Numbered from the stretch's first letter, positions 144 through 45,776 are shown. The stretch is 64,000 nt of DNA from Patescibacteria group bacterium (GCA_049322215.1 JBMORU010000001.1:194327-258326), one strand, 5' to 3'. Program-made: numbers and translations. The notes: generated from the sequence alone by a model not told the origin.

Positions 144-1913
144 TTATACAAGTTTTTCGGAAAGTTCACTAAATTTTTTAGACAGTTCCATTAACAACAC
201 TTTATCATTTTCTAATTCTGCCTGTTTTATTTTCGAACTTATTTCCGTTAATTCTCTCTTAACAGTTTCTTTTTTTATACGATTAAATACTAAGTCTAAC
301 TCCCGTAGTAACAAAGTACTATTGTCATTTAATATACCCAAATCCCACATATACATATTAACGACAAGATCTTTTGTTTCGCTATCAAATTTGTTACTAA
401 AGGAATTAATATTGAAGGCTCTTTTTCTACCAAGTAAATAGTTTTTGAGATTTATAAAAATATTCTCCAGTATTGGATTAGTGAAGTCCTTCTGTCCAAG
501 CTTATACAATAGGGTTTGGGCACTGTCAAGAGGAGCTTTTAGTAACAAAGCTAACATATACTCCTGAGTAGATTTCTTTGACAACATATATTGTGATTTG
601 CCTAACTCCTTTTGCTTTTTAGATTTAATTTTAGACTCATCTATTTCTCCTTTTTTTATCATATTCCTAACAGTAGGCTCTGTTATATCTAACACTTCGG
701 ATAAATGTTTAACATAGTGATCAAAATCAACAGGACTGGAAATTTTAGAATATAAAGGAATAAGCTCTTCCATGATTTTCTTTTTACCTATAGAACTATG
801 CCTGTTATTTTTCTTTAACGTTGCATGTAAGAAAAAATCATACACAGGAACAGCGTCTTTAAAAATAGAAGATACTTTAGAACTATCGGCATGAACAAAC
901 TCATCTAAATCTTTGTATTCATCAGGAATTAAAGCTACTTTTACATTAAAACCTTCCTTTTCTGCCATAGGAACTGCCCTTATTATGGCCTCACGGCCGG
1001 CATTGTCGTTATCAAAGCATAAAGTTACATCTTTTGTGTACCTCGATAGCACTTTAAGCTGCCCTATAGTTAAAGAAGTACCTAAAGGCGCCACCACGTT
1101 TTTTACACCAATTTCGTATGCTGAAATAACATCTAAAGGCCCTTCTACTAAAATAGCGCCGTTTTTCTTTATTTCAATTTTTGCTTTATCTAGTCCAAAA
1201 AGTAGAGCACTTTTAATGAAAATGGGGGTTTCACTAGTATTAATATACTTTGGATCTTCGTTAAAAATGGTCCTTGCTGTGTAGCCAACTACTCTTCCTG
1301 AAGGATCACTAATAGGAAACATTACACGCCCTCTAAACTTATCTATAAAACCCTCGCCGGAGCGTTTTTTCATTACTAAACCTGCAGAAAGCATATCTTT
1401 TGCTGTAAATTTTTTTGAAGACAATGTTTTAAAAAGGCTATCCCAAGTTTTTGGGGCATACCCAATTTTAAATTCCTTTATTGTGACATCACTTAGCCCG
1501 CGTTCTTTTTTTACATATGTTAGAGCTTCTTTTCCCACCTTATGCTTAGTTAATAAATAGTAGTAAAAAGCTGTCGCTACATGATTAATTTCATAAAGTA
1601 TTTCTTTACTGTTTTTTTGCGGATCTATGTTTTTTTTATCTAACTTAACACCAGCTTTTTCGGCCAATAATTCTAATGCCTGACTAAATTCGACACCTTC
1701 AATTTTTTGAATAAAGTTGAAAATATCGCCTGCTTCATTACAACCAAAACACTTAAACATTTGTAGTTCGGGTGAAACCATGAAAGAAGGCGTATCTTCA
1801 GAATGAAACGGACAAACAGCTTTGTAGTTTCTACCTGCTTTTTTTAAAGAGATATATTCGGCAATAAGATCTTCAATATTTATTTTTTGTTTGATTTCGG
1901 CTATTGAATCCAT
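144..1913 (-). CDS. dnaG: DNA primase DnaG
   Basis: N-terminal CHC2 zinc finger (CPFHSEDTPSF...FKCFGC), central Toprim region (EGPLDVISAYEIG, DNDNAG), 589 aa. Confidence 0.9.
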   Translation of the reverse strand: MDSIAEIKQKINIEDLIAEYISLKKAGRNYKAVCPFHSEDTPSFMVSPELQMFKCFGCNEAGDIFNFIQKIEGVEFSQALELLAEKAGVKLDKKNIDPQKNSKEILYEINHVATAFYYYLLTKHKVGKEALTYVKKERGLSDVTIKEFKIGYAPKTWDSLFKTLSSKKFTAKDMLSAGLVMKKRSGEGFIDKFRGRVMFPISDPSGRVVGYTARTIFNEDPKYINTSETPIFIKSALLFGLDKAKIEIKKNGAILVEGPLDVISAYEIGVKNVVAPLGTSLTIGQLKVLSRYTKDVTLCFDNDNAGREAIIRAVPMAEKEGFNVKVALIPDEYKDLDEFVHADSSKVSSIFKDAVPVYDFFLHATLKKNNRHSSIGKKKIMEELIPLYSKISSPVDFDHYVKHLSEVLDITEPTVRNMIKKGEIDESKIKSKKQKELGKSQYMLSKKSTQEYMLALLLKAPLDSAQTLLYKLGQKDFTNPILENIFINLKNYLLGRKRAFNINSFSNKFDSETKDLVVNMYMWDLGILNDNSTLLLRELDLVFNRIKKETVKRELTEISSKIKQAELENDKVLLMELSKKFSELSEKLV

Positions 1914-1974
1914 AGACTTAGTTTATATTCTGTATAGCAAAAACAATCAGCTATAACAATTAAGTGAGTAAAAG

Positions 1975-2340
1975 TTATTTTTCAACAACACAGTCAGCAG
2001 GACAAGATTCAACTGTTTCGGCACAAGGACATCCTGTTCCCAAACAAACTATTTCTTGGCATGTATTGTCGCCACAAAGATTTTCACAAATGTCAGAGGG
2101 TATATCTGATATATCTGCGGGAGGTACTACTTTTGGAGCACTAAGATCAGTAAAAGTTCTACCATCTGGCGTAGTGCATATTGGAGGATATATTAACAAT
2201 GTTTCATAACCCGCTGAAATGCAGGATTCGTAACTGTTTACATTAGCTAGTTTTTTGTTTGTATATACATTGAAAGTTAAAAAAGACACACAAAAAAGTA
2301 AAATAGCGAAAGATAAAGAAAGAATAAGGAATTTAGACAT
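1975..2340 (-). CDS. hypothetical secreted cysteine-rich protein
   Basis: N-terminal signal peptide/TM (FLILSLSFAILLFCVSFL), 14 Cys in 121 aa; no recognisable family. Confidence 0.45.
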   Translation of the reverse strand: MSKFLILSLSFAILLFCVSFLTFNVYTNKKLANVNSYESCISAGYETLLIYPPICTTPDGRTFTDLSAPKVVPPADISDIPSDICENLCGDNTCQEIVCLGTGCPCAETVESCPADCVVEK

Positions 2341-2360
2341 TTGGTAAATAATAACATATG

Positions 2361-2450
2361 TGGCGGAGGGAGGGGGATTTGAACCCCCGTGCCGCTTGCG
2401 CAGCGCGTCGCTTTCCAGGCGAGCCGATTAGACCGCTCTCGCATCCCTCC
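2361..2450 (-). tRNA. tRNA-Ser (anticodon GGA), 90 nt, long variable arm
   Basis: Minus-strand read GGAGGGATGCGAGAGCGGTCTAATCGGCTCGCCTGGAAAGCGAC...GGGGGTTCAAATCCCCCTCCCTCCGCCA: 7-bp acceptor, D arm CGA/TCG, anticodon loop CUGGAAA, long extra arm, T arm GGGGG/CCCCC, encoded CCA. Confidence 0.8.
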
Positions 2451-2473
2451 ACAACGGGACTGAGTATACCAAA

Positions 2474-2869
2474 CTATATTTTGCAATTACACTCTTTATC
2501 TTTATTCAATAACACTGCAGCAGGTTTATAAAGCTTACTTCTGTTTTTGGCTACCCAAGTATAAACAGCTTCTGAAAAACGCGCAAAAGGCTTAACTTTT
2601 GTATACATCCAGGAAAATGGGTTGTAGGGATGATAAACAGAATACAAAGTATAAACAGCTTCTGCCCCTGAATAAACTTGTCCATCAACCCCTATTAATT
2701 TAACAGCATGTGCAAAATCTTCTTTACTAATATGTGGGTATAGGGCAGCCACTGCCTGATAAGGAGAAAAGGCTACTTTGTTATTACTATCTTTTTGCCA
2801 CTTTTCCACCCAAAGCTTGCAAAAAGCACATTCATCATCATAAATTAAGTGCGGTTTTTCAGTGTTCAT
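2474..2869 (-). CDS. DCC-family (DUF393) thiol-disulfide oxidoreductase-like protein
   Basis: N-terminal IYDDECAFC CxxC motif typical of DUF393/DCC; 131 aa. Confidence 0.55.
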   Translation of the reverse strand: MNTEKPHLIYDDECAFCKLWVEKWQKDSNNKVAFSPYQAVAALYPHISKEDFAHAVKLIGVDGQVYSGAEAVYTLYSVYHPYNPFSWMYTKVKPFARFSEAVYTWVAKNRSKLYKPAAVLLNKDKECNCKI

Positions 2870-2886
2870 ATAAATATATTACACCT

Positions 2887-2977
2887 TGGCGGAGGGAGGG
2901 GGATTCGAACCCCCGTGTCACTTGCGCAACGCTTGGTTTTCGAGACCAGCCCGTTATGACCACTTCGGTATCCCTCC
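2887..2977 (-). tRNA. tRNA-Ser (anticodon CGA), 91 nt, long variable arm
   Basis: Minus-strand read GGAGGGATACCGAAGTGGTCATAACGGGCTGGTCTCGAAAACCAAG...GGGGGTTCGAATCCCCCTCCCTCCGCCA; anticodon loop CUCGAAA; acceptor and T arm nearly identical to the Ser-GGA gene at 2361..2450. Confidence 0.8.
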
Positions 2978-12285: not shown

Positions 12286-13536
12286 ATGGAAATTAATAGA
12301 TTTCAACTGAAAAATGGCCTTCAAATATTGCACTTACCCTACAAAGAAGTTGACTCAGTAACACTGAGCCTTAAAGGCTTTGCAGGAGCTGTATTTGAAA
12401 AGGAAAACGAAATCGGAGTGGCACATTTTCTTGAGCATTTAGTTTTTGATGGAACAGAAAAATACCAAACATCTAAAAAACTAGATGATGTACTAGATAA
12501 CGTAGGAGGTACCTCAAATGCAGGAACATCTAAAGAATATGTAGAATATTGGGCAAAAACACTTTCCCAACATAAAAAATTAAACTTTGACTACATTTCT
12601 CAAATAGTTCTACACCCACTATTAAGACAAAAAGGAATAGACAAAGAAAAAGGTGTTATAGAGCAAGAAATAAACAGATTTAAAGACTCTCCTGAAGCAC
12701 TTAGTCCAAGAATTGCATACAAAATTTTATTTCCAAATCAAAGACTGGGACATTTTATTTCAGGTGACATAGAAGACATTATGAAAATAGACAAAGAAAA
12801 TATAAATTCTTTTGTAAATAGAACTTACAATTCTAATAACTTTGTATTAGCAGTTTGTGGAAATATAGGTTTAGAAGAAACCCAAGATTTAGCTCAAAGC
12901 TTTTTTTCAAATTTTAAGGCAGGAAAAAAACAAACAGCAGAAACGCCAAAAAAAAGTCTTAAGCAAGAAAGCCAAACAATTAACAAAATAAGCTTAAATC
13001 AAGCTACTCTACAACTTGATTATTATGGGTATGACTACAATCAAAGCAAAAAGTACGCACTAGCAGTACTATCTAATATTATAGGTACTGGCTTTTCATC
13101 AAGACTTTTTCAACTAATACGTGAAAGAAACAGCTTGGTATACCACATTGGAAGTTATTTATCTGTTGGTACAAATTATGGTGTTTTTAGCATATTTGCA
13201 GGACTAGACGAACAAAATATTGATAAAACAATTGACCTAATTAACAAAGAATTTAAAAAAATTGTTAAAAATGGAATAACAGCAAAAGAATTACAGAAAG
13301 CTAAAAACACAGTAAAGGCAAGCTTTAGCTTTGGGTTTGAAAGCGCTTCAACAAGGGCATCATATTATTCCAACTTAGCTTTATTTCAACCCAATATAAA
13401 AAGTCATTTAGAAGAACTTGAAAGCTACGAAAAAGTAACGCTAGATGAAGTAAAAAGCGTAGCAAAAGAAATTTTAGAACAAATGCCTAAAATTACCGTA
13501 ATTGCCCCAAATTTTAAAAAAACAAATCAACGCTAG
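12286..13536 (+). CDS. M16-family zinc metallopeptidase (insulinase-like)
   Basis: Inverted zinc-binding motif HFLEHLVFDG (HxxEH) near the N-terminus; 416 aa. Confidence 0.8.
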   Translation: MEINRFQLKNGLQILHLPYKEVDSVTLSLKGFAGAVFEKENEIGVAHFLEHLVFDGTEKYQTSKKLDDVLDNVGGTSNAGTSKEYVEYWAKTLSQHKKLNFDYISQIVLHPLLRQKGIDKEKGVIEQEINRFKDSPEALSPRIAYKILFPNQRLGHFISGDIEDIMKIDKENINSFVNRTYNSNNFVLAVCGNIGLEETQDLAQSFFSNFKAGKKQTAETPKKSLKQESQTINKISLNQATLQLDYYGYDYNQSKKYALAVLSNIIGTGFSSRLFQLIRERNSLVYHIGSYLSVGTNYGVFSIFAGLDEQNIDKTIDLINKEFKKIVKNGITAKELQKAKNTVKASFSFGFESASTRASYYSNLALFQPNIKSHLEELESYEKVTLDEVKSVAKEILEQMPKITVIAPNFKKTNQR

Positions 13537-13539
13537 TGC

Positions 13540-15411
13540 TTGTTCTTCGGGTTATTTTTGGTAAAATCTGGAAATTCAATGAATATAAAAAAAGAAAGAA
13601 AAACCAAGCAGGAATATTTAGAAGACAATAAAAATATATTAATTGCGCTAAAACGCATGATTTCTTATACGTTTAAAATTGCTCCAATTTGGTCTGCGTT
13701 AGTTTTAATTTCAAGCATTGCAAGTGCAATACTGCCTTATTTAGCAACCTGGGTGAACAGCAAAATCATAGATGAACTAGTTACAATTGCCACCTCAGGA
13801 AACTCTGATACTGCTAAATTAATGTACTACGTCGGCGTAATTGTAGCTTATATGATATTTACTAGTTTACTAGGTAGAATAAAAACCTATGCCAGAGTAA
13901 ACATGTACTTTGCTGTATCTAGAGAATTTGGTCACATGGTTACTATAAAGCTCGCACATTTAGATACGGAGCACTATGAAAACCCTGATACTAATGACTT
14001 ACTACAAAAAGTAAGAGAAAACTATACCCACAGGCCACAAGAATTTGCATTTATTGCTTTTAACACAATAGAAATTATAACCTCTGTAATATCTGGAATG
14101 GTAATTATGATCAACTTTTCACCTATAATTGCTGTGATTTTGATACTTGCAACAATGCCTATATTAGTAAACGATATTGTTTACGGAAAAAGAAACTGGG
14201 GCATTTGGGGAGCAAAAGGCGATGTAAGAAGAGATTACCATAGCACTAGAAGTAGTTTAGTAAATGAAAACGAACTAAAAGAATTACGCGTATTTAAAAC
14301 AAGGCCATACTTTTTAAATAGAATATATAACCTTTACTATGACTTTCAAAAAGAAGAAATTAAGCTAGAAAAGGCTAGAACTGTAACTAGAATCGTTTTG
14401 GATTTGGTTAATGTTGCAGGCTTCACCTTTGTATTTTTAACAATTGTACGCAGAGTCATAGCAAAGACTATATCAATTGGTGACTTTAACTTTTATGTTA
14501 GTACCTCTAGAAGTTTAAGAAGCGCGCTTGGTGAATTTTTCGGAAGGCTATCGAGACTATATGAAAATGGTTTATATGTAGTAGACATTTTTAAAGTGTT
14601 AGATTTTGAAAATAAAATAGAGGAAGGTACACAAGAATTAGCCAATAAACAAACACCTCCCTTAATTGAGTTTAAAAACGTTTCTTTCACCTATCCTGGC
14701 ACAGAAAAAGCGATTTTAAAAAACTTCAGTTTAACTATAGAACCAGGAGAACATATTGCTATTGTAGGAGAAAACGGAGCAGGAAAAACTACTCTTATAA
14801 AATTATTAATGCGCTTTTACGATGTTACTGAAGGCGAAATATTACTTGATGGAATTAATATAAAAAATCTTAAATTAGATAATCTATACTCAAAAGTAGG
14901 TACTTTATTTCAAGACTTTAACACTTATCATTTTGACGCAAAGACTAACATTGGAATTGGAAATGTTGAAAATTTAAATAATATTGAAGGAGTAGTAAAC
15001 GCAGCCAAACAGTCAGGAGCACATTCGTTTATAAGTGATTACACAAATGGCTATGAGCAAATACTAAGCAAAGCATTTAAAGAAGGCATAACGCCTTCTA
15101 CAGGACAGTGGCAAAAAATTGCATTAGCGCGCGCCTTTTTCAAAGAAGCACCAATACTAGTTTTAGACGAACCCACCAGCGCAATTGATCCAAAGGCCGA
15201 ATATGAAATTTTTGAAAAATTGTTTGATTTTGCAAAAAATAAATCAGTAATAATAATATCTCATAGGTTTTCTACTGTTAGAAATGCAAACAGAATTCTT
15301 GTTATAAACGACGGAAATATTTTAGAACAAGGTACTCATGAAGAGTTAATGCAAATTGAAGATGGTAAGTACAAACATGCTTTCGAGTTGCAAAAGAAAG
15401 GTTATGAATGA
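13540..15411 (+). CDS. ABC transporter, fused permease/ATP-binding exporter (MsbA/ABCB-like)
   Basis: 6 N-terminal TM helices; Walker A GENGAGKTT, signature STGQWQKIALARA, Walker B ILVLDEPTSA. True start may be the downstream Met (MNIKKERK). Confidence 0.8.
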   Translation: MFFGLFLVKSGNSMNIKKERKTKQEYLEDNKNILIALKRMISYTFKIAPIWSALVLISSIASAILPYLATWVNSKIIDELVTIATSGNSDTAKLMYYVGVIVAYMIFTSLLGRIKTYARVNMYFAVSREFGHMVTIKLAHLDTEHYENPDTNDLLQKVRENYTHRPQEFAFIAFNTIEIITSVISGMVIMINFSPIIAVILILATMPILVNDIVYGKRNWGIWGAKGDVRRDYHSTRSSLVNENELKELRVFKTRPYFLNRIYNLYYDFQKEEIKLEKARTVTRIVLDLVNVAGFTFVFLTIVRRVIAKTISIGDFNFYVSTSRSLRSALGEFFGRLSRLYENGLYVVDIFKVLDFENKIEEGTQELANKQTPPLIEFKNVSFTYPGTEKAILKNFSLTIEPGEHIAIVGENGAGKTTLIKLLMRFYDVTEGEILLDGINIKNLKLDNLYSKVGTLFQDFNTYHFDAKTNIGIGNVENLNNIEGVVNAAKQSGAHSFISDYTNGYEQILSKAFKEGITPSTGQWQKIALARAFFKEAPILVLDEPTSAIDPKAEYEIFEKLFDFAKNKSVIIISHRFSTVRNANRILVINDGNILEQGTHEELMQIEDGKYKHAFELQKKGYE

Positions 15412-19730: not shown

Positions 19731-20312
19731 ATGCCCAATAAAAAAGGTTTCACACTTATAGAACTTCTTATAGTAATTAGCCTTATTGCTATGCTTACAG
19801 GTATATTAATTCAAGTAATTGATGTTCAGCAGCTTATGAAAAGAGCAAAAGATGCAGTAGTAAAAGGCACAATTATAAAATTAGCGCTAGTAGTAGAGTC
19901 AAATGTGTCATCAACAGGGCATGTGCCTATTAATGAAGGCTGCAATTGCGATATACCAAATAGTTGCGAAATGATGACACTTTTAAATAATCAAGTAGTA
20001 AACTGCCATAAAACACAAATAACGCCTGATGGAACTAAACTTTGGATGGAAGTAAAAACACTTAAAATGGGCGAAACGCTACTGGGAGGTAATATAGATT
20101 TAGATGATTCCGACGCCATAAGGTATATGGACTTTAGAGATGGCTGCTTAGCGGCAGTTTCTGAGGAAACACCCCCTTGGGTTTATGTATGGTCTCGAAG
20201 TAGAGGTTTAATGTTTTGCCACCCAGGAACGGATGTTCACCCAGGGCTTGTTACCTGCAATAACATTTTGAATGATAGTTTTGTAGCACAACGTTGCGAG
20301 TCTATAGATTAA
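19731..20312 (+). CDS. type IV pilin-like protein
   Basis: MPNKKG/FTLIELLIVISLIAMLTGILI prepilin signal; Cys-rich C-terminal domain. Confidence 0.8.
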   Translation: MPNKKGFTLIELLIVISLIAMLTGILIQVIDVQQLMKRAKDAVVKGTIIKLALVVESNVSSTGHVPINEGCNCDIPNSCEMMTLLNNQVVNCHKTQITPDGTKLWMEVKTLKMGETLLGGNIDLDDSDAIRYMDFRDGCLAAVSEETPPWVYVWSRSRGLMFCHPGTDVHPGLVTCNNILNDSFVAQRCESID

Positions 20313-20860: not shown

Positions 20861-23800
20861 TTAAAAGGAAACTTGCGTAACTTCAAGACCGTCTGCCCAT
20901 AAAGTACCAGACCCATTTAGGCTTAATGAAACCCTCATGTATGTGGCATCTGTTGGAGCTTTACCCTCTACCAATGCTTTTACCCATGGTTGTTTTAGCT
21001 GTGCTGAAGATACGGTTGTTTCAAATCTTCCTAAATATGTTGATCCTGATAAACCCCCGTAATAACTCATAGTTAGTACTGCACCATTTGTGATTTCTTG
21101 TCCTTTAAGCCACATTGATAGTGCATAAGTTTGATTTTGTTCTACGGGTATATATTTTCTTATGCTTGTCCAGCTTCCATAGTATCTGCTATCCGTAACG
21201 GTCGTTTTTAAAGAGTAATTGCCTGTATAAGATTGATCGTTTGCCCATGAAAATGTGGCACTTCTACCGCTTGTACTGAAATCTTTGGTTGGGTCTGTTT
21301 CAAAACTTGTGCCAAATACTATGCTTGTAGCTGTTGCAGTTGATGTATTTGTTGATGAAGCAGGCTGCGGCGTTTCTATGGGTTGTTCAGGAACTGTAGG
21401 ATTAGTCGTTACTGTATCTACGTTATCGGTATTTTGCGAAATGGGATCAAATACCGAGGGGGTGTCATTAGTATTAGTGGAAAAATCAACGCTGTTTGAA
21501 GAATTAGCGAATGCAGAATTAGTTACCTCTAAGTAATCCATATTAGGACCCCCAACACTATGTGTTGCAGACAATCTAACTGTGTTAAAACCATTATTTA
21601 AAGAAACCATGCGCTCAAGGGTTCCCCAGTCTTCCCAAGTAGAACCAGTACCAGTGAAGTTAATATTTTCTAAAATGACGCCATTTATAATCAAATCTAA
21701 AGGGCGTCCATTGTTTGGACCCATCCAGGAACTATCTGAATCAAGGGCATAGCCAAAACTTAGTAAGTAATCACCTGCTGTTGGTGCGGAAACCGTCCAT
21801 TCTACGTAACTTCCCTTTCCATCAGGATAATCGCTGTAATCAATAAAACCGTTACCACTGTACCCAGCTTGATTACTTGCCACATTAGTTGTACCTCCAC
21901 CGGCATTGTCTCCAAAAGCAGCTTCTTCTGCCTCATATTTATTACTTGTAGATGTTAAGGGGTTTAGAGTCAAATAGTCTACGTTAGGACCCCCAATTAA
22001 ATCAGTAGCTTCTACTCTTATTGTATTTAGTCCAGAAGTTAGCGATATTGATTTAGTTACTGTTCCCCAGGTTTCCCACGATCCTGTACTTGTGTAAGCT
22101 ACGTTTTCCACTACATTTCCATTTACTATTAAATCCATATTTCTACTATTACGAGATAAGGCATATATTACATCTACGCTATAAGTACCTGCTGTAGAAG
22201 AATTATAAGTCCACTCTACATATCCACCTTTTCCATTAGGACTGTTACTCATATCTACGAAACCGTCTCCGCTGTATCCAGCATGGTTAGTTGCGACTTT
22301 TGTAGTGCCTAAACCTATAGCATCTCCAAAGTTGGCGTTTTCGGCCTCAAGTTTGTTGCTACCACCTGAAGGCGGTGGAGGTGGGGGTGGTACAGGACAT
22401 GCCCCACAATCTGCTGAACAGGTAGAACAAGTTTCATTGCCATTACACTGGTTATCACCGCATGAAGGTGCCGGTGGATCCGGGGGCATAATAGAAACAG
22501 TAGTTACTTTTAAGTAATCTACATTGGGTCCCCCATAAGTGCCTGCAGCAACTAACCTAACGGTAACTTCGCCAGCTGGTAAGTCAACTTCAGCACCAAG
22601 TTCTTTCCAAGTTGTCCATGAACCAGTGCTTGTAAACGATATAGCACCAAGATTTTTTCCGTTCACAATTAAATCCATTGGTCTGTCACCAGATATACCG
22701 TTTGAAAGGGCATACCCAAAATCAAGTGCATATTTGCCTTCATCTATCACATTAAACTTCCACTCAATAAAACCATCGGCACCATTTGGAAAGTCACTTA
22801 AGTCAACAAAACCTGTGCCGCTATAACCAGAATGTACGGTATCTACCTGAGAAGTACCAAGCGAGGTGTCGCCAAATACAGCATCTTCAGCTTCAAGCAA
22901 CATAGTATCTCCGGAAGGTGGTGGTGGCGAAGGGCATTGTCCGCAATCTGCAGAACAAAGCGAGCATGATTCAGTGCTACTACACACCCCATCTCCACAG
23001 CTAGGTGCAGGATCAGGAGGAGGAGAGGTTGAATCTTCCATACAAAAAGAACATAAACTTGCAGGAGCAGTTACCAAAGCAGGGCCGCTCACAGTAAGAT
23101 TTTCTTCCTGAGAACCGTTACAAATAGCCACTGGACTTGAAGTAATAATGTCATCAATACTTACATTATCTTCATAAGAATTATTTAAAAGATAAACCTC
23201 AGTAGAGTTCTCGTCCACCCTAACTACGGGCTTAGCTGCGCTACCGACAGAATTAATAAATTTATTTTGACACCACGTAACATTTTTAGGTGAATGGTAT
23301 ATTCTATAAGTTCTAGTGGCATAGGTGCCAATATTGTCTTCTAGCTTATTGTGATGAACATAAACATTTGTTGCATCAGGAAACTTTGATCCATCAGTGC
23401 GATAAATATAGTTACCAGCAGTTTCTCCAACGTTAGCGTGCGAATCAACCCCTAAACCAGTTAAATCATGTAAGTCATTTGAATAAATAGAATAACTTTC
23501 TGTATATAGTTGCCCAGGAAGTAAATTGCCTGTATCTGAATTATTTAAGGCTTGGTTTAAACACCCATTGTTATCTGCACCATCAGTAATAGAACAATCT
23601 TTAGAACCTACTCCATGAGATGCATTATGCGCCTCATTGTATCGAACTGTTATGTTTTTAGCATATCTAAAGTGAATTGCAGAGTCTCCGTCAGAGTTTT
23701 TGGCTTCTACTCTCTCGACAAGGGCATTATCGGAATACCAAATATTTATAAGTAAGCCTTTTGTGCTAGAACCATCTACAGTTAAATCACGCAAAATTAG

Positions 23801-24442
23801 ATTTTTTTTGTGCTTAAAACGTACAACATCGTTTGTGTAGCCACTTCTTTTCAATATAGTTTTACCAACACCAGCGCCTTGTAAAATAATATTGTTTGGT
23901 AATTCAAGTTTGGCAGTGATAGTTATTGTACAGGCGGGCAAATTAACTGTACCGCCATCTGAACCCAAACTATCTAATAAACTCTGTAAAGCAGAATATG
24001 TACAAGTATCGAGGCTATACACTTTATTACCTACAGCTGCGTTAAACTGATCCCATTTAAAACCGCGTTCAGGAAACTTTAACTTGCGACAAACGTTTGG
24101 AGATGATGATAAGTCAAGATAACTACCTTCGGAGCATGGGTTACTACCCACACCCGATGACATAGATGCTAAAACAGAAGCGTTTTCAGAAGAATCACTT
24201 TCTTTTGTTTGTTTTAGTAAAGACGAAATTTTATAGGAGTAATCAGAAACAGTACCATTAAAATAATATAAAAACCCACCAACTACAGCTAAAACTACAA
24301 CAGCTAATAACACATGAGTAAAGCCTTGGTCTTTTTTATGATCACGTTGCTCAAATGTATTCACGTAAAAAGTGTAACAATCTTTACAATTTGGTGTCAA
24401 TGAATTACATAGATAGTTATCTATTAAACCTTTGGTGGACAT
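20861..24442 (-). CDS. large membrane-anchored surface protein: right-handed beta-helix (pectate-lyase-like) domain, three CBM6/CBM35-like repeats and a C-terminal CBM4_9-like domain, joined by Cys/Pro-rich linkers
   Basis: 1193 aa; N-terminal TM (VLLAVVVLAVVGGFLYY); NxxDGxxxxL-like beta-helix repeats; three about 130-aa repeats each ending GGPNVDYL; linkers PPDPAPSCGDGVCS...CSADCGQCPSPPPPS occur twice. Confidence 0.7.
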   Translation of the reverse strand: MSTKGLIDNYLCNSLTPNCKDCYTFYVNTFEQRDHKKDQGFTHVLLAVVVLAVVGGFLYYFNGTVSDYSYKISSLLKQTKESDSSENASVLASMSSGVGSNPCSEGSYLDLSSSPNVCRKLKFPERGFKWDQFNAAVGNKVYSLDTCTYSALQSLLDSLGSDGGTVNLPACTITITAKLELPNNIILQGAGVGKTILKRSGYTNDVVRFKHKKNLILRDLTVDGSSTKGLLINIWYSDNALVERVEAKNSDGDSAIHFRYAKNITVRYNEAHNASHGVGSKDCSITDGADNNGCLNQALNNSDTGNLLPGQLYTESYSIYSNDLHDLTGLGVDSHANVGETAGNYIYRTDGSKFPDATNVYVHHNKLEDNIGTYATRTYRIYHSPKNVTWCQNKFINSVGSAAKPVVRVDENSTEVYLLNNSYEDNVSIDDIITSSPVAICNGSQEENLTVSGPALVTAPASLCSFCMEDSTSPPPDPAPSCGDGVCSSTESCSLCSADCGQCPSPPPPSGDTMLLEAEDAVFGDTSLGTSQVDTVHSGYSGTGFVDLSDFPNGADGFIEWKFNVIDEGKYALDFGYALSNGISGDRPMDLIVNGKNLGAISFTSTGSWTTWKELGAEVDLPAGEVTVRLVAAGTYGGPNVDYLKVTTVSIMPPDPPAPSCGDNQCNGNETCSTCSADCGACPVPPPPPPPSGGSNKLEAENANFGDAIGLGTTKVATNHAGYSGDGFVDMSNSPNGKGGYVEWTYNSSTAGTYSVDVIYALSRNSRNMDLIVNGNVVENVAYTSTGSWETWGTVTKSISLTSGLNTIRVEATDLIGGPNVDYLTLNPLTSTSNKYEAEEAAFGDNAGGGTTNVASNQAGYSGNGFIDYSDYPDGKGSYVEWTVSAPTAGDYLLSFGYALDSDSSWMGPNNGRPLDLIINGVILENINFTGTGSTWEDWGTLERMVSLNNGFNTVRLSATHSVGGPNMDYLEVTNSAFANSSNSVDFSTNTNDTPSVFDPISQNTDNVDTVTTNPTVPEQPIETPQPASSTNTSTATATSIVFGTSFETDPTKDFSTSGRSATFSWANDQSYTGNYSLKTTVTDSRYYGSWTSIRKYIPVEQNQTYALSMWLKGQEITNGAVLTMSYYGGLSGSTYLGRFETTVSSAQLKQPWVKALVEGKAPTDATYMRVSLSLNGSGTLWADGLEVTQVSF
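21540..23060 (-). repeat. three tandem diverged about 400-450-nt intragenic repeats (CBM-like modules) separated by two near-duplicate Cys/Pro-rich linker segments
   Basis: Protein-level repeat ...AE.A.FGD..G.GTT.V.T..AGYSG.GF.D......G...EW......G.Y......YA...LVNG........TG.W.....GGPNVDYL three times; linker DNA around 22370-22490 and 22900-23060 is similar. Boundaries approximate. Confidence 0.5.
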
Positions 24443-24822
24443 AGACTTTAATACTTGGAACCGCTTTGTTGAATGGGTTTTTGAAGGGGGGCCACAAGTA
24501 CCTGCACTAGCAACGGCATGACAGCAACAATAAATGATAGCGATTAACTAGCACCAACGTGTAATAGAACCACAGGGGTTAAGCACACTGAAAGTTAAAT
24601 AAAAAAGATAAAAAAGGGGTATTTAGTAAAGGTTGTTTTTTTCGAATTTTGAAAAAAGTCACTTCGCAATATTTCAATAGACTACAAACTTGATAATGTA
24701 GGCATACTCAGCACCCATAGATATCAACTGATTATTGATATATAATCCATTACAAACACGGTTGGGTGTTTTATTTCCTATCAGAGTAGACAAATAGTTA
24801 GAAACAAGGAAGGTGAGACTCA

Positions 24823-24984
24823 ATGGATGAAAAAGGTTTTGTTGTACCAGCAGCAACGGCTTATCAAAATCTAGGCAACAGGAGAGTTTCGACAAACCGC
24901 AAAACTTGCAATAAGTGCCAAGGGCCATGTGCGTGTAATTGCAAACGTGCCCCAAACACCACCAACGCAACACTGGTTCGTTAA
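24823..24984 (+). CDS. unlisted 53-aa Cys-rich small ORF, candidate RiPP precursor (SCIFF/ranthipeptide-like): MDEKGFVVPAATAYQNLGNRRVSTNRKTCNKCQGPCACNCKRAPNTTNATLVR
   Basis: ATG 24823 preceded by GGAAGGTGAG (RBS-like); TAA at 24982; five Cys clustered C-x2-C-x3-C-x-C-x-C in the C-terminal third; lies 112 nt upstream of a radical SAM/SPASM gene on the same strand. Confidence 0.55.
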   Translation: MDEKGFVVPAATAYQNLGNRRVSTNRKTCNKCQGPCACNCKRAPNTTNATLVR

Positions 24985-25096
24985 CCCAACGTCGTTGTCC
25001 TTCAAGGGGTTACCTAAGATACTGCCAACCCAGTTTCTGAAAGTAATCCCTCTAGCACTTTTATGTTCAAATAGTATGTAACCCAGGAGAGTAGCA

Positions 25097-26395
25097 ATGA
25101 TAAAACTATCCAAATACACACATGTTATTCCTATTAATAGCGCTACCTTTGCACTTTGGAATAGCTTATGGCTTAGAGTCATTTTCGTTAACGAAAGTAC
25201 ACTCGAAGCAATTAGGACAGGAGACCCCCTAGGAATTCACCCTGCCCTATTACAGGCACTCAATGACAACAACTTCATCGCAGATGATGAAAGAGATCAA
25301 GCGAAGTTAATGGAAGTAAGAAGATCTCTGCCACATCAATCCATTGGACTGATGTATTTGATCGTCACAGAAGGGTGCAATTTTGGCTGCGGGTACTGCT
25401 TTCTAAAAGACATGGTATGTAACGACCACGCCATTGAATCAATGATGACCTTTGAAATTGCAAAGAAGGCAATTGATCTGTTCAAAAAAACAATAGAAGC
25501 ATCAGGAGCCATCGAAGAACCAATGATCATCTTTTACGGTGGTGAACCCTTGCTAAACTGGGAGGTTATTCACCAAGCACTGATATACGCCCGCGAGCAG
25601 ATTCCAAACATTTCATTCACGCTAAACACCAACGGGAGCCTGATAACACATGAAATTGCAATGGTGCTTAAAGAGATGCAGGTGGGAGTGGCACTTTCTA
25701 TCGATGGAAAAAACCACGATGTTTACAGAGTTAATCGAGGTGGAGAAGGAACTCTTGCCCAGGTACTTGCAGGACTCAAGATACTCCAAGAGCATGGATG
25801 TGCAGTTGGTATCTCTTGCACAGTGACCGACGCAAATCTTGAAACACTGGTTGATGATTTCCTATGGATGATCGATGATCTAGGTGCAGACTCAGTTGAC
25901 TTCAATGTACTACTCGGCAAGGAACCAGACGAGCATTACAAAGAAAGAGCTACTGCACAGATTTTGAAGTGTTATCAAATTGGATTAGAAAAGGGAGTGC
26001 CTGTAGAACGTGTAATGCGTACCATTGAACCGATTATAGAAGGTAGGCTTTGCCTAGCTGATTGCGGTGGTTGTGGACAGCAAATAGTATGTGCTCCAGA
26101 TGGTCAATTAGGTAGCTGCCATGCATTCTTAAACGACAGGTCTTTTTTCTTTCAATTTGAAGATGTTCCAAACCCAGATCAACATGAGCTTTGGTTGGAG
26201 TGGAAAACTAGATCGCCATTCAATATACCCGAATGCCTGGATTGCCCAGCATTAGGTGTTTGTGGAGGAGGATGTTTTTACAATTCATATCTCCGAGATG
26301 GAAGTGTGTGGACTGTAGACAAAGTGAACTGCACATTTGTAACAACTATCCTTCAAACAGCTTTAAAAGATATGTGGGAAAGCATGCAACCATAG
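25097..26395 (+). CDS. radical SAM/SPASM-domain peptide-modifying enzyme (SCIFF/ranthipeptide-maturase-like) with N-terminal RRE-like extension
   Basis: CNFGCGYC (Cx3Cx2C) radical SAM cluster; C-terminal CLADCGGCGQQIVCAPDGQLGSC and CLDCPALGVCGGGC (Cx2Cx5Cx3C) SPASM auxiliary-cluster motifs; about 85 aa precede the rSAM core. Confidence 0.85.
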   Translation: MIKLSKYTHVIPINSATFALWNSLWLRVIFVNESTLEAIRTGDPLGIHPALLQALNDNNFIADDERDQAKLMEVRRSLPHQSIGLMYLIVTEGCNFGCGYCFLKDMVCNDHAIESMMTFEIAKKAIDLFKKTIEASGAIEEPMIIFYGGEPLLNWEVIHQALIYAREQIPNISFTLNTNGSLITHEIAMVLKEMQVGVALSIDGKNHDVYRVNRGGEGTLAQVLAGLKILQEHGCAVGISCTVTDANLETLVDDFLWMIDDLGADSVDFNVLLGKEPDEHYKERATAQILKCYQIGLEKGVPVERVMRTIEPIIEGRLCLADCGGCGQQIVCAPDGQLGSCHAFLNDRSFFFQFEDVPNPDQHELWLEWKTRSPFNIPECLDCPALGVCGGGCFYNSYLRDGSVWTVDKVNCTFVTTILQTALKDMWESMQP

Positions 26396-26450
26396 AGTTC
26401 GGAGGGTTTTTGTTAAGCAAACGCTTGATAAAAACTCTCCCTTTTTTGTT

Positions 26451-27182
26451 TTAGGAGCGTACTTTTTCTAAAGTTAAAGAAACAAAATCTTTAATCCCTT
26501 TCGCATCAACATACTCAGATTTAATTGCCAATTTAACTTTCTCCAATTGAGGGTAGTTCTTTAGGTATTGGTCATAACCTTGAGTCTTTTTTGACCACAA
26601 GTCTTTAAAATCAGGATCTAAACCCAACACAGCATTGGTAACTAGCTCATTAAGAGCCCAATACTCAAATACTGGGTTTTCTTCAGAATCAGGAAATAAC
26701 TCCCAAATTACATGCCACATGTGATGCATTAGTAGTTCGTGAGCTGTAATGCGTAATTGATCCTTTGAATCTTCCAAAGCGGATCTAACTACGGTGTCTC
26801 CACACATATTGCTGACCCCTTTGTTTAAAGGACTGATAACCACCTTATATTCTTTGTGAGTCCATTTGTGGCTTGTTAACTCTGTAGTTTTTTCAAAAAA
26901 ATGGTCATTTATTTTGTCCCACTCTTGTTGGTAACCCTTTAAAGCACTAGATATTTGAGCGGAGTGTTTTGCATGCTGCTCTTCTAAAAAGTTAGTTGCC
27001 CATTCCTCAATTTCTTCAAATGCTTCCGCTTGAACAAATTTATCAGCATCCTTTTTTTGAATGCCCATAGAGTCAAGACGGCTTTCTAAACCTGCAGGAT
27101 CTTCCATGTTTAACATATTCCAGGTTGTCATAGCATCATAGTTTGTATCTACAATAAATTTTACTTTTGTCATTGCTAACAT
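26451..27182 (-). CDS. hypothetical protein (convergent with the rSAM gene)
   Basis: 243 aa, His-rich segment TAHELLMHHMWH, no canonical HExxH; function unknown. Confidence 0.45.
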   Translation of the reverse strand: MLAMTKVKFIVDTNYDAMTTWNMLNMEDPAGLESRLDSMGIQKKDADKFVQAEAFEEIEEWATNFLEEQHAKHSAQISSALKGYQQEWDKINDHFFEKTTELTSHKWTHKEYKVVISPLNKGVSNMCGDTVVRSALEDSKDQLRITAHELLMHHMWHVIWELFPDSEENPVFEYWALNELVTNAVLGLDPDFKDLWSKKTQGYDQYLKNYPQLEKVKLAIKSEYVDAKGIKDFVSLTLEKVRS

Positions 27183-27326: not shown

Positions 27327-27732
27327 TGGTGGAGATGAGGAGAATCGAACTCCTGTGTTGAAAGTAAAAACATTCAAGTGTACAAGCTTAGCTGGCCATT
27401 AAATTCAAAAAGACAGGTTGCCAACACACCCTAAACCTTTTCTAGACTTCAGCTAATAAAAGCCTTTACACTTTTTGCGTGTTTGGAGGTTAAGTCAGTC
27501 ACGCTTAACTACCGCATCCCGGTTAGTTTTGACCCAATAATCCATTCCGGGCAAAAGATTAAAGGATCTTCACCTTAAGTTAAAACTTAGGCAAATGCTC
27601 CAACCATTGCTGGTTGAGCTACTAGTACATCTTCGTCTGCACTTATTAACGGCTAGCATTTTTACGAACTTACTAGCAATTTCGGCTTGCTTGCAATGCT
27701 TTAACACTTACAGTCAAAGCCATTACATCCCC
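27327..27732 (-). ncRNA. ssrA: tmRNA (ssrA), about 406 nt
   Basis: 5' GGGGATGTAATGGCTTTGAC... and 3' ...CAGGAGTTCGATTCTCCTCATCTCCACCA form a tRNA-Ala-like acceptor with a G3-U70 wobble and encoded CCA; T-arm-like GGAGTTCGATTCTCC; sits 40 nt downstream of smpB; candidate tag ORF GCAGACGAAGATGTACTAGTAGCTCAACCAGCAATGGTTGGAGCATTTGCCTAA (ADEDVLVAQPAMVGAFA*). Confidence 0.8.
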
Positions 27733-27771: not shown

Positions 27772-28233
27772 TTAGTAAACGTATTTACGCGAATCTTTTG
27801 CAGCTTTATCTAGCTCTTTTTTAACTTGACGTTCTTGTGCCACAATCTTTTTTTCGTGTTTTTTACGTCCTTTTACTATTGCGAATTCTAATTTTATCAG
27901 ATTATGTTTTAATAATAAAGCCAATGGAACCGCCGTTTTTCCTTTTTGACTCAACTCTCTTTGCAGTTTTTGTAATTCGTTTTTGGTTATTAAAATTTTT
28001 CTGCTTTTTCTAGAATCATTTTCATCGTAATTTTGACTTTGCTTTGAATACTTGCCAATATGCATATTCACCACATAGGGTTCGTTTTGTATTAAAGTTA
28101 TATAAGATCCGGTCATATTAACTTTACCTTCTTTAATAGCTTTAACCTCATAACCACGTAAAATAATCCCTGCCATAAATTTTTCAAGGATTTCGTGATT
28201 AAATGTAGCTTTTCTGTTTTTTGCTAATAACAT
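27772..28233 (-). CDS. smpB: SsrA-binding protein SmpB
   Basis: 153 aa; sequence (EILEKFMAGIILRGYEVKAIKEGKVNMTGSYI...KLEFAIVKGRKKHEKK) and C-terminal basic tail fit SmpB. Confidence 0.9.
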   Translation of the reverse strand: MLLAKNRKATFNHEILEKFMAGIILRGYEVKAIKEGKVNMTGSYITLIQNEPYVVNMHIGKYSKQSQNYDENDSRKSRKILITKNELQKLQRELSQKGKTAVPLALLLKHNLIKLEFAIVKGRKKHEKKIVAQERQVKKELDKAAKDSRKYVY

Positions 28234-43679: not shown

Positions 43680-45776
43680 ATGGCTTTAAAAGACACACAA
43701 AAAGTAAATAAACAGCACGCAGTACCACAAAATATAATGGATGTGGAATTTAAAATAATTGGTGAATTAACTATGCGCCAATTTTTTTACCTTCTTATTT
43801 TTGGGGGAATTGGATATGGAGCATTTACACTTATCAGTAATTCTTTAATTAAATGGCCAATAATTTTGGCTTCAGCAGCATGTGGTTTACTGTTAGCATT
43901 TGTACCAGTGCAAGAACGAAGCATAGACGAATGGGTGGTTAACTTCTTAAGGGCTATATACAGAACCAATCAAATGATTTGGCGAAAAGATCCTACAATT
44001 CCAACCGCCTTCCTATACCAAAGTCTGGATGTAGTAAGACAGGAATTAATTACATTAGCACCTACTTCTAGTAGAAGAAAATTAGAAGAGTATCTGCAAT
44101 TTAAAGATGAACCCAAAGTTAGTGACGATCTTGATATTCCAGAAATTGATTTTATACAAAAAGTACATCAGGCATTTGCATACGATGCTAAACAAACAAA
44201 GAAAGCACAAAGTAGCATTAAAACAACACAATTTAACACACAAGTCACACAGCAAGTACAGGCACCGCCTCAGATAACTACTACGACACAACAACCAATA
44301 GCTATGCCAAAGCAACAAGTGACACCACCTGCCGAAATACCTAATCAATCAGCACCAAAAATTAACCCACATCCTACAATTGTACAGGAGTCTCCTGTAA
44401 CACCATCTAAAAAAGAAACTATATCTCCTATAGAAGTACAACCTGACACTTCATCTAAAAATGACACCGAAAATAAGCAAAATACTAGAGATATGCTTAA
44501 TAAGACCGAGCAACAACCACAAGCACGTACTGTAATCAAGCCTCCAGAATTGCCAAAAAGAGAGACGAAAAATCAAGAACTAAGTAAACCAACTCCTCCG
44601 CAGTTTAATATAGCCAAAAAGCCAGAACCAGAATTACAGCAACAACCTCAATTTAAGCCAGAGCTACCAAAATTTGAAGTATCAAAAGAAACAAATGAGC
44701 CTTCAACACCAAAGGTAGCTACAGAAAAGGAGGAAACACAAGACACTATTAACAGAGTCACACCAGCACCAGCACCAGCACCAGCACCAGCACCAGCACC
44801 AGCACGGCAAGAGGCACCTCCCCAACCTCCAGAGCTAGAGTTGCCAGACATTGAAACGGGACAGGATTTAACACTTGTGCCTATTACTCCCAACAGGCAT
44901 ACTGGAAGAAGATTCACTAGCTTATTACCAACTCAAGGTGAGATATTATTACCCATACGCGGAGAAAGAGTTTTAAAAACCACAGAAGAAGCTAATATAG
45001 AAAATGAAATAGCTGAAAAAGCTAAGCAACTAAGACTAATGATTGAACAAATAAAACAAGACGAAAAATTCAGATCTACTATAACTAAATTTCAAACTGC
45101 TAAGCCTTTGCAGGAAGATGGTTATAAACTACCAAAGATAGAAACAGCAGAACACGAAGCACAGCTAAATAAAGAAGCAAAAGAAGTTATAGAAACAGTA
45201 GAAGAAGAAAATACAAGATTAACAAAAGAAATAGAACAATTAAAAACAGATTTGGAAACCACAAATAAACCACAAGAAGCGCAAGAAAAGAAAGAAGAAT
45301 TAACCAAGTTAGAACAAGAAAAAGCCGAGGTATTAAAAAACTACGAAGCATTAAAGCAAAAAGTACAAGAACTAGAAGAAAAACTAGAAAAAAAACAAGG
45401 CGAACTGCCTAAAATAATAGTTCAAAAAGTTTACGATAACGGAGGCACCGACACACAACCAACAACTAACCCTACAATAGCTCAAATACAACCACTAACA
45501 AATGCGCCTAACATTATATCTGGCGTAGTAAAAAGCACCAATGGTGAAACATTAAGTGGAGTTGTAGTAATAATAAAAAACCAAAAAAATGAACCAGCAA
45601 GGGCGCTAAAAACAAATGCATTAGGACAATTTTCGATAACTACACCTTTATCTAATGGTACCTATATTATTGAAGTAGACAAGTTTAATAAAACTAATTT
45701 AAGCTTTGATATAATAAGCATTGAAGCTAAAGGAGAGGTTCTTCCACCTTTGGAATTTGTAGGAAAACCAGTTTAG
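43680..45776 (+). CDS. VirB3-like membrane module fused to a long Pro/Gln/Glu-rich linker, coiled coil and C-terminal CarboxypepD_reg-like beta-sandwich domain
   Basis: N-terminal about 100 aa with two TM helices (FFYLLIFGGIGYGAFTLI; WPIILASAACGLLLAFV), like VirB3/PrgI; (PA)8 repeat; EQLKTDLE... coiled coil; C-terminal ISGVVKSTNGETLSGVVVIIKN. Confidence 0.4.
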   Translation: MALKDTQKVNKQHAVPQNIMDVEFKIIGELTMRQFFYLLIFGGIGYGAFTLISNSLIKWPIILASAACGLLLAFVPVQERSIDEWVVNFLRAIYRTNQMIWRKDPTIPTAFLYQSLDVVRQELITLAPTSSRRKLEEYLQFKDEPKVSDDLDIPEIDFIQKVHQAFAYDAKQTKKAQSSIKTTQFNTQVTQQVQAPPQITTTTQQPIAMPKQQVTPPAEIPNQSAPKINPHPTIVQESPVTPSKKETISPIEVQPDTSSKNDTENKQNTRDMLNKTEQQPQARTVIKPPELPKRETKNQELSKPTPPQFNIAKKPEPELQQQPQFKPELPKFEVSKETNEPSTPKVATEKEETQDTINRVTPAPAPAPAPAPAPARQEAPPQPPELELPDIETGQDLTLVPITPNRHTGRRFTSLLPTQGEILLPIRGERVLKTTEEANIENEIAEKAKQLRLMIEQIKQDEKFRSTITKFQTAKPLQEDGYKLPKIETAEHEAQLNKEAKEVIETVEEENTRLTKEIEQLKTDLETTNKPQEAQEKKEELTKLEQEKAEVLKNYEALKQKVQELEEKLEKKQGELPKIIVQKVYDNGGTDTQPTTNPTIAQIQPLTNAPNIISGVVKSTNGETLSGVVVIIKNQKNEPARALKTNALGQFSITTPLSNGTYIIEVDKFNKTNLSFDIISIEAKGEVLPPLEFVGKPV
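44759..44806 (+). repeat. hexanucleotide microsatellite (CACCAG/CCAGCA) x about 7.5 encoding (Pro-Ala)8
   Basis: caccagcaccagcaccagcaccagcaccagcaccagcaccag read directly in the sequence. Confidence 0.85.

Follow-up and report, generated by a model that had tools for sequence, protein, structure and literature searches.

Among the systems described so far, the FibroRumin system (enzyme TIGR04136, peptide TIGR04135) comes closest to the locus presented here. In it, the genes of Cys-rich peptides stand immediately 5′ of the gene for a radical S-adenosylmethionine (rSAM) enzyme on the same strand, and to our knowledge its product is chemically uncharacterised. The searchable literature contains no description of FibroRumin-type systems or of the clade from the candidate phyla radiation (CPR) and DPANN archaea that is treated below. 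Three further systems bear comparison: the SCIFF/thermocellin peptides with their maturase ScfB/CteB (structure 5WGG), the freyrasin system with PapB (NF047865), and TigE (8VPO), which is a cyclopropyl synthase. PapB joins Cys to non-alpha carbons by thioethers (PMC9413430). Here we compare with them a cassette of a Patescibacteria group bacterium (GCA_049322215.1), located in a window of 64,000 nucleotides (JBMORU010000001.1:194327-258326; "the window" is this whole stretch, with a G+C content of 34.7%). The cassette consists of a 53-codon open reading frame (ORF) and the rSAM/SPASM gene that follows it; beside them stands a convergent accessory gene, a frequent companion of such cassettes. 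The small ORF is a genuine, conserved gene that had been left without annotation, and very probably it encodes the precursor of a ribosomally synthesised and post-translationally modified peptide (RiPP), with the adjacent rSAM/SPASM enzyme as its maturase.

The likeness to the FibroRumin system begins with the gene order and continues in the core. By inspection of the sequences, both cores follow C-x-G-(P)-C-x-C-N-C-[RK], with Q-C-T-G-C-M-C-N-C-R in FibroRumin type 1 and K-C-Q-G-P-C-A-C-N-C-K in the window. The leaders may be related as well: when the peptide clade with a V-R tail was aligned to the FibroRumin peptides by hhalign, the probability was 91% (E=1e-6, 34 columns, leader only), and a hidden Markov model (HMM) of the window's peptide clade recovered FibroRumin-type peptides with E-values from 1e-5 to 1e-2. 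The differences concern scores, tail and gene content. On TIGR04136, its best match, the window enzyme reaches 212.1 bits (residues 5-426), about half of the cut-off of 400, and its closest relatives reach 221-266 bits, whereas the enzymes of Firmicutes relatives, true members of the family, have 767-802 bits and the peptides beside them pass TIGR04135 with 64-70 bits. Two Patescibacteria enzymes just pass the enzyme cut-off (L031 with 403 bits and L035 with 407 bits; loci of relatives are numbered with L). Neither the window peptide nor that of L001 matched TIGR04135, and the L002 peptide scored 8.7 bits (cut-off 45). The tail is hydrophobic-V-R in the window clade and acidic, D/E-x-[DE]-W-E, in FibroRumin; the window has one precursor gene where FibroRumin has two to five in tandem; and a zincin-like accessory gene is present in the window cassette. 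Since FibroRumin is the best match but lies below its cut-off, the SCIFF and TIGR04135 models miss the peptide, and the cores are alike and the leaders perhaps related, the cassette is, on sequence grounds, best described as a sister of the FibroRumin system that has diverged from it, outside the FibroRumin and SCIFF families and in no curated equivalog.

The other enzyme models also align end to end with lower scores: PapB is second with 140 bits (cut-off 340), followed by the SCIFF maturase TIGR03974 with 126.5 (425) and QhpD with 123 (453). The window peptide lacks the repeated C-x3-D of freyrasin, and its core is free of Asp and Glu. Among solved structures TigE comes closest, both by sequence (E=4e-28) and by fold (TM 0.78), but it is only about 20% identical to the window enzyme and its substrate is not Cys-rich. 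The cassette is of a known general kind, the Cys-rich radical SAM/SPASM RiPPs, within which it represents a branch, so far uncharacterised, that is marked by a core motif and a tail of its own and by an optional zincin-like partner.

The product of the small ORF, MDEKGFVVPAATAYQNLGNRRVSTNRKTCNKCQGPCACNCKRAPNTTNATLVR, has Cys at positions 29, 32, 36, 38 and 40, which gives the spacing C-x2-C-x3-C-x-C-x-C. A leader of about residues 1-27 with V8-P9-x4-Y14 is followed by the Cys-rich core TCNKCQGPCACNCKR (residues 28-42) and by a tail that ends L-V-R. The motif GGAAGG (24808..24813), a part of the Shine-Dalgarno-like sequence in Table 1, is separated from the ATG by 9 nt, and 112 nt lie between the ORF and the ATG of the enzyme gene at 25097. 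On the ORF, its Cys spacing, its ribosome-binding site and its distance from the rSAM/SPASM gene, the initial annotation, made from the DNA alone, was accurate. Three antisense ORFs overlap the small ORF (24674..24973, 24864..24965 and 24871..25182).

Is such a short frame a gene? Cys density alone is a weakly significant signal: when all six frames of the window are read, three of the 387 ORFs with 30 aa or more have at least five Cys within 13 residues, compared with about 0.3 in shuffled windows, and the other two of these ORFs are antisense frames inside long genes. An exact look-up of the 53-aa sequence in the protein collection found no entry. A word-index search with the peptide alone produced zero candidates, phmmer against 1.8 billion representatives returned one spurious match of 423 aa (E=6e-4), and no family for the peptide was found in Pfam, NCBIfam or PHROGs.

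In spite of this weak signal, the conservation of position, strand and motif lifts the small ORF above chance. Close relatives were located through exact-protein contig look-ups from homologues of the downstream enzyme; among the matches listed, a metagenome scan with generic rSAM patterns gave mostly remote relatives. In the four closest relatives (L001, L002, L163 and L164; Table 1) a small ORF stands upstream on the same strand, and all four share [ST]-C-x2-C-x-G-P-C-A-C-N-C, the leader motif [VI]-P-x4-[YF] and a C-terminal V-R tail. The amino acids GPCACNC are invariant in the window, L001, L002 and L163, with synonymous third-position differences in 6 of the 7 codons, which argues for purifying selection on the reading frame. 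Ribosome-binding sites of GGAG type lie 4-7 nt 5′ of the ATG in all five ORFs. The peptide alignment has one plan, consisting of a leader with [VI]-P-x4-[FY], a Cys-rich core and a conserved hydrophobic-V-R C-terminal tail, and every relative with an enzyme identity of 38% or more has this tail. A leave-one-out HMM, for which 16 relatives but not the window sequence were used, detected the window ORF as its sole match in the window, with E=2.3e-5 referred to the pooled 12,947 six-frame ORFs of the window and all fetched loci. The proposal of a conserved Cys-rich candidate precursor has thus been borne out by homologous ORFs, synonymous variation and profile detection.

The linkage of peptide and enzyme was counted over 112 usable loci as the presence of a sense-strand Cys-dense ORF not more than 600 nt upstream of the enzyme. 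Such an ORF was present in all ten loci with an rSAM enzyme at least 38% identical, in 13 of 23 loci at 33-38%, in 44 of 57 at 30-33% and in 12 of 22 at 20-30%, compared with 8/89 in equally sized control regions and 9/112 on the antisense strand. The initial annotation had named loss of the small ORF in homologous loci, or rSAM homologues without a Cys-rich neighbour, as the findings that would speak against it; the ten of ten at the highest identity speak for the ORF. Some of the loci that have no upstream ORF in these counts are accounted for by peptide genes downstream of the enzyme, as in L016 1870..2064 (Saccharibacteria) and L013 4220..4423 (Parvarchaeota).

The downstream gene encodes a radical SAM/SPASM peptide maturase, as had been proposed; motif, NCBIfam, AlphaFold2 and Foldseek agree on this. 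Across 31 homologues the radical SAM motif C94-x3-C98-x2-C101 does not vary, Pfam PF04055 (Radical_SAM) gives 73 bits, and Fer4_12 is also recognised. Seven further Cys are invariant (C323, C341, C380, C383, C389, C393 and C412), and C326 is shared by at least 90% of the sequences. The SPASM pattern C-x9-15-G-x4-C ... C-x2-C-x5-C-x3-C ... C is recognised in C326...G336-x4-C341, C380-x2-C383-x5-C389-x3-C393 and C412. The AlphaFold2 model has a pLDDT of 92.5. In this model the N-terminal domain (pLDDT >85) is built as beta3-alpha3, with strands at 8-12, 17-22 and 27-32 and helices at 33-41, 49-57 and 64-80, and thus has the predicted topology of a RiPP recognition element (RRE). In the whole-chain Foldseek comparison TigE is followed by CteB (5WGG, TM 0.74) and then by ChlB and anSME.

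Table 1. Features of the cassette in the window, and the four loci closest to it.
Feature	Position	Strand	Remarks
Promoter-like TAGATA-17 nt-TATAAT	24718..24746	+	10/12 consensus matches; about 77 nt 5′ of the peptide start codon
Shine-Dalgarno-like AAGGAAGGTGA	24806..24816	+	5′ of the peptide ATG
Precursor-peptide gene (very probable), 53 codons	24823..24984	+	ATG at 24823, stop ends 24984
Core Cys block C29-x2-C32-x3-C36-x-C38-x-C40	24907..24942	+	G34-P-C-A-C-N-C40 invariant in the comparison with the four closest relatives
Radical SAM/SPASM peptide maturase, 432 aa, NCBI MFZ5424389.1	25097..26395	+	Motifs, profile matches, AlphaFold2, Foldseek
Intrinsic-terminator-like hairpin (18 bp stem), then T-run	26401..26450	+	6 nt past the rSAM stop; between convergent genes
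Convergent accessory gene, 243 aa (NCBI: 240 aa, MFZ5424390.1, "hypothetical")	26451..27182	-	Zincin/gluzincin-like fold
L001			rSAM 60% identical to the window's; peptide MNKQGFFVPSETAYQ...CTQCSGPCACNCQKRNPVSATSLQVRA
L002			rSAM 53% identical to the window's; peptide ...CTACSGPCACNCHHEPEFAPAAQVR
L163			rSAM 48% identical to the window's; peptide ...CNQCRGPCACNCVKVRNPCNVVVVRK
L164			rSAM 42% identical to the window's; peptide ...CMCQCPCNCNRTSNKSPATKVR

With the promoter-like site on one side and the terminator-like hairpin on the other, the peptide and enzyme genes look like a two-gene operon. The promoter-like site is a consensus match only, and the region has no more of these sites than shuffled sequence would be expected to give. 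No significant structure was found in the 112-nt spacer between the two genes (z = -1.17), and an attenuator or hairpin at this place was rejected on that value. The 380-nt region upstream of the peptide gene matched no Rfam family.

The accessory protein has the motif H148-E149-L-L-M-H-H154 ... W175-A-L-N-E179, of which W-x-L-N-E179 is invariant. This H-E ... W-x-L-N-E recalls the HExxH ... (W)LNEG of gluzincins such as thermolysin and the catalytic domain of M1 aminopeptidases, but at the sequence level the protein has no match in Pfam, NCBIfam or PHROGs, and a profile search of the PDB gave chance matches only. Distant homologues carry the canonical H-E-L-L-H. Homologues adjoin the enzyme in 13 loci, including distant Patescibacteria and DPANN archaea (L013, L066), and one is present in every close relative with sequence on that side (L001, L002, L164/L165, L172). 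From its motif we consider the accessory protein a candidate peptidase for the leader, or else a candidate tailoring enzyme, of uncertain activity. In L163 a second radical SAM gene (1667..2701, +; 344 aa), which overlaps the end of the maturase gene, stands in its place.

How could the cassette work? A course of events can be drawn from the biochemistry of CteB, PapB, QhpD and AlbA (PMC10114670; PMC9413430). One transcription unit, running from the promoter-like site at 24718 to the terminator at 26401..26450, would carry the peptide and maturase genes. The RRE-like N-terminal domain of the enzyme would bind the leader through [VI]-P-x4-[YF]. The radical SAM cluster (C94/C98/C101) would reductively cleave S-adenosylmethionine, and the resulting 5′-deoxyadenosyl radical would abstract hydrogen from a core residue. 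A Cys thiolate could then capture the carbon radical with the assistance of the SPASM auxiliary Fe-S clusters, giving an intramolecular thioether. In the core T-C-N-K-C-Q-G-P-C-A-C-N-C up to one cross-link per Cys, and so up to five, might form, after which the convergent zincin-like protein may remove the leader. The conserved non-Cys residues of the core ([ST]28, G34, P35, A37 and N39) are candidates for acceptor or structural positions. We infer the pairing of substrate and enzyme, the thioether chemistry, the acceptor residues, the removal of the leader and the biological role; as to the chemistry specifically, we incline slightly, by analogy with these enzymes, to thioethers. Among these, a link from the Cys sulfur to the alpha carbon of an acceptor residue defines sactipeptides and one to a non-alpha carbon defines ranthipeptides, two classes drawn by chemistry; here an alpha, beta or gamma carbon may be linked.

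Several results weigh against a RiPP precursor with thioether cross-links and its maturase. Both peptide and enzyme stay below the curated cut-offs of all named families, and in the searchable literature neither the peptide nor any FibroRumin-type system is covered by experimental or expression data. The window core has five Cys and those of L001, L002 and L163 have eight or nine; by this comparison it is a shortened version of the relatives' cores. The Pfam SPASM model PF13186 did not match the enzyme at E<=1, and we therefore base the SPASM assignment on the fold, the Cys motif and the end-to-end alignments to NCBIfam models. TigE, the nearest enzyme of solved structure, is not a thioether synthase, so the fold does not fix the chemistry. 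Within the window's clade the accessory proteins have Met or Ile where HExxH has its second His, and conserve His154 instead, which makes metal binding and catalytic competence uncertain, and two accessory homologues (L170, L171) do not lie beside an rSAM gene. Finally, there is no transporter or canonical peptidase within the cassette.

Some of these points suit a genuine precursor whose modification is something other than a Cys thioether. C-C or C-O cross-links, cyclopropanation, oxidation or decarboxylation of Cys, or an intracellular peptide of metal-binding or redox-cofactor-like type would all belong here, and we regard this as possible, although unlikely. TigE stands ahead of the thioether synthase CteB as structural match, no exporter is encoded in the cassette, and the chemistries of rSAM/SPASM enzymes are many, with the rules that decide among them unknown (PMC10114670). 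On the other hand, the dense Cys array is strongly conserved throughout the lineage, as no other feature of the core is, and the best-scoring characterised families after FibroRumin, namely PapB, ScfB and QhpD, are thioether formers.

A translated ORF that is not a RiPP precursor is a much poorer explanation, and we consider it very improbable. Lying directly 5′ of the enzyme gene in one transcription unit, a Cys-rich regulatory upstream ORF might couple rSAM expression to the supply of Cys or Cys-tRNA; alternatively, the product might be an unmodified metal-binding mini-protein, as short Cys-rich peptides can bind metals without modification. The insignificant structure of the spacer gives no sign of a terminator/antiterminator switch. 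Conservation extends, at the amino-acid level, to the leader motif, G-P, A, N and the C-terminal V-R, and the leader appears to be related to the leaders of curated RiPP precursors. In many relatives, moreover, the peptide genes stand in tandem, two to five at a time, as is usual for RiPP precursors but not for attenuators.

The initial annotation had called the ORF a candidate SCIFF/ranthipeptide-type precursor, and the SCIFF label has to be withdrawn. It had some grounds: the spacing C-x2-C-x3-C resembles the start of a SCIFF core, the core is Cys-rich, both systems have a minimal two-gene unit without a transporter, and the enzyme is kin to ScfB/CteB at the superfamily level, sharing an rSAM/SPASM architecture with an N-terminal peptide-binding domain. 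A SCIFF-like sequence, GGCGECQASCQSACKTSC, also occurs in L145. Nevertheless, the 53-aa peptide had no match to TIGR03973 in NCBIfam at E<=1, and the enzyme lies far under the TIGR03974 cut-off and scores lower there than on FibroRumin and PapB. The window peptide has five Cys in 53 residues where SCIFF has six in about 45, leader and host range differ, and the conserved V-R tail is absent from SCIFF. SCIFF family membership is ruled out by these HMM scores, and a SCIFF peptide with an ScfB-type maturase deserves next to no credence. As for an intergenic frame that is open by chance, its shortness, the failure of single-sequence searches and the weak Cys-density signal are outweighed by peptide motif, position and strand kept beside enzymes only 42-60% identical, synonymous substitutions under an invariant motif, conserved Shine-Dalgarno sites and the leave-one-out detection, by which this explanation is effectively refuted.

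The precursor-maturase cassette is not peculiar to this genome. Such cassettes had been expected to be unusual in a reduced, low-G+C genome, but this expectation did not hold: among the best 80 listed species-representative loci, 36 belong to Patescibacteria/CPR (among them Saccharibacteria, WWE3, Parcubacteria, Paceibacterota and Falkowbacteria) and 6 to DPANN archaea, 42 in all, and a Cys-rich upstream peptide is present in most of them, in a ranking that favours relatives of the CPR query and gives counts that are no estimate of frequency. Cys-rich rSAM peptide cassettes, usually seen as a feature of Clostridia, appear frequent in ultra-small CPR bacteria and DPANN archaea. A gene missing from the annotation is hereby added to a Patescibacteria genome of 1.1 Mb. 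Standard rules overlook cassettes of this sort: curated HMM cut-offs exclude that of the window, and the ranthipeptide rule of antiSMASH is keyed to the SCIFF model TIGR03973 (PMC13289728) and would therefore miss the locus. These hosts have shed most biosynthesis and yet keep a peptide-modifying enzyme that is expensive in Fe-S clusters; its product is probably needed, and the family is therefore a reasonable target for heterologous expression. It is a more doubtful, speculative idea that we see here a Patescibacteria/DPANN-enriched, horizontally mobile branch of Cys-rich rSAM peptides (G-P-C-A-C-N-C core, V-R tail, optional zincin-like partner) with a chemistry or role unlike that of known sacti- and ranthipeptides, for example a new type of cross-link, a metal or redox peptide kept inside the cell, or a factor of episymbiont-host interaction, in which the zincin-like partner would be a new RiPP tailoring enzyme or a leader peptidase with a non-canonical metal site.

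The layout of the peptide genes varies across the relatives. Locus L004 has two tandem peptide genes (2448..2904), and in three gammaproteobacterial loci (L024, L033 and L048) a single ORF fuses two leader-core units. In Lachnospiraceae (L056, L070) three to five tandem peptides with two core types were observed. Two enzyme copies (L017 and L063) lie about 5 kb apart on the Saccharibacteria contig CAYMZK010000002.1. The scan of viral contigs gave one close cassette only, L178, on a 35.9-kb contig classified as viral (IMGVR_UViG_3300029580_000250); it has a full-length relative of the enzyme (1288..2847, 33% identity) with the upstream peptide MFHPKQKDLIKLQGNLSDAILMAPKCQCTGNCKVTKDSQLSLKFRRA.

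Other genes of the window surround the cassette. A gene for an M16 family metallopeptidase (12286..13536, +) is directly followed by one for a 623-aa ABC exporter (13540..15411, +; ABC_membrane, ABC_tran). This pair could process and export peptides, but it was left out of the cassette because it is 9 kb away with unrelated genes between. Upstream of the peptide gene and divergent from it, a gene at 20861..24442 (-) encodes a protein of 1193 aa with an N-terminal hydrophobic segment, three carbohydrate-binding modules of CBM6/CBM35 type and Pro-rich, Cys-containing linkers; with these features it probably serves as a large glycan-binding protein, either secreted or on the cell surface. The gene at 19731..20312 (+) encodes a type IV pilin-like protein with a prepilin N-terminal methylation motif. 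Just past the accessory gene, the tmRNA gene (27327..27732, -; Rfam 110.8 bits) adjoins smpB (27772..28233, -), which codes for the SsrA-binding protein. Farther along, the antisense ORF 44703..44825 (-) reads (CW)n inside a 698-aa gene (43680..45776, +) and represents a short tandem dinucleotide-codon repeat.
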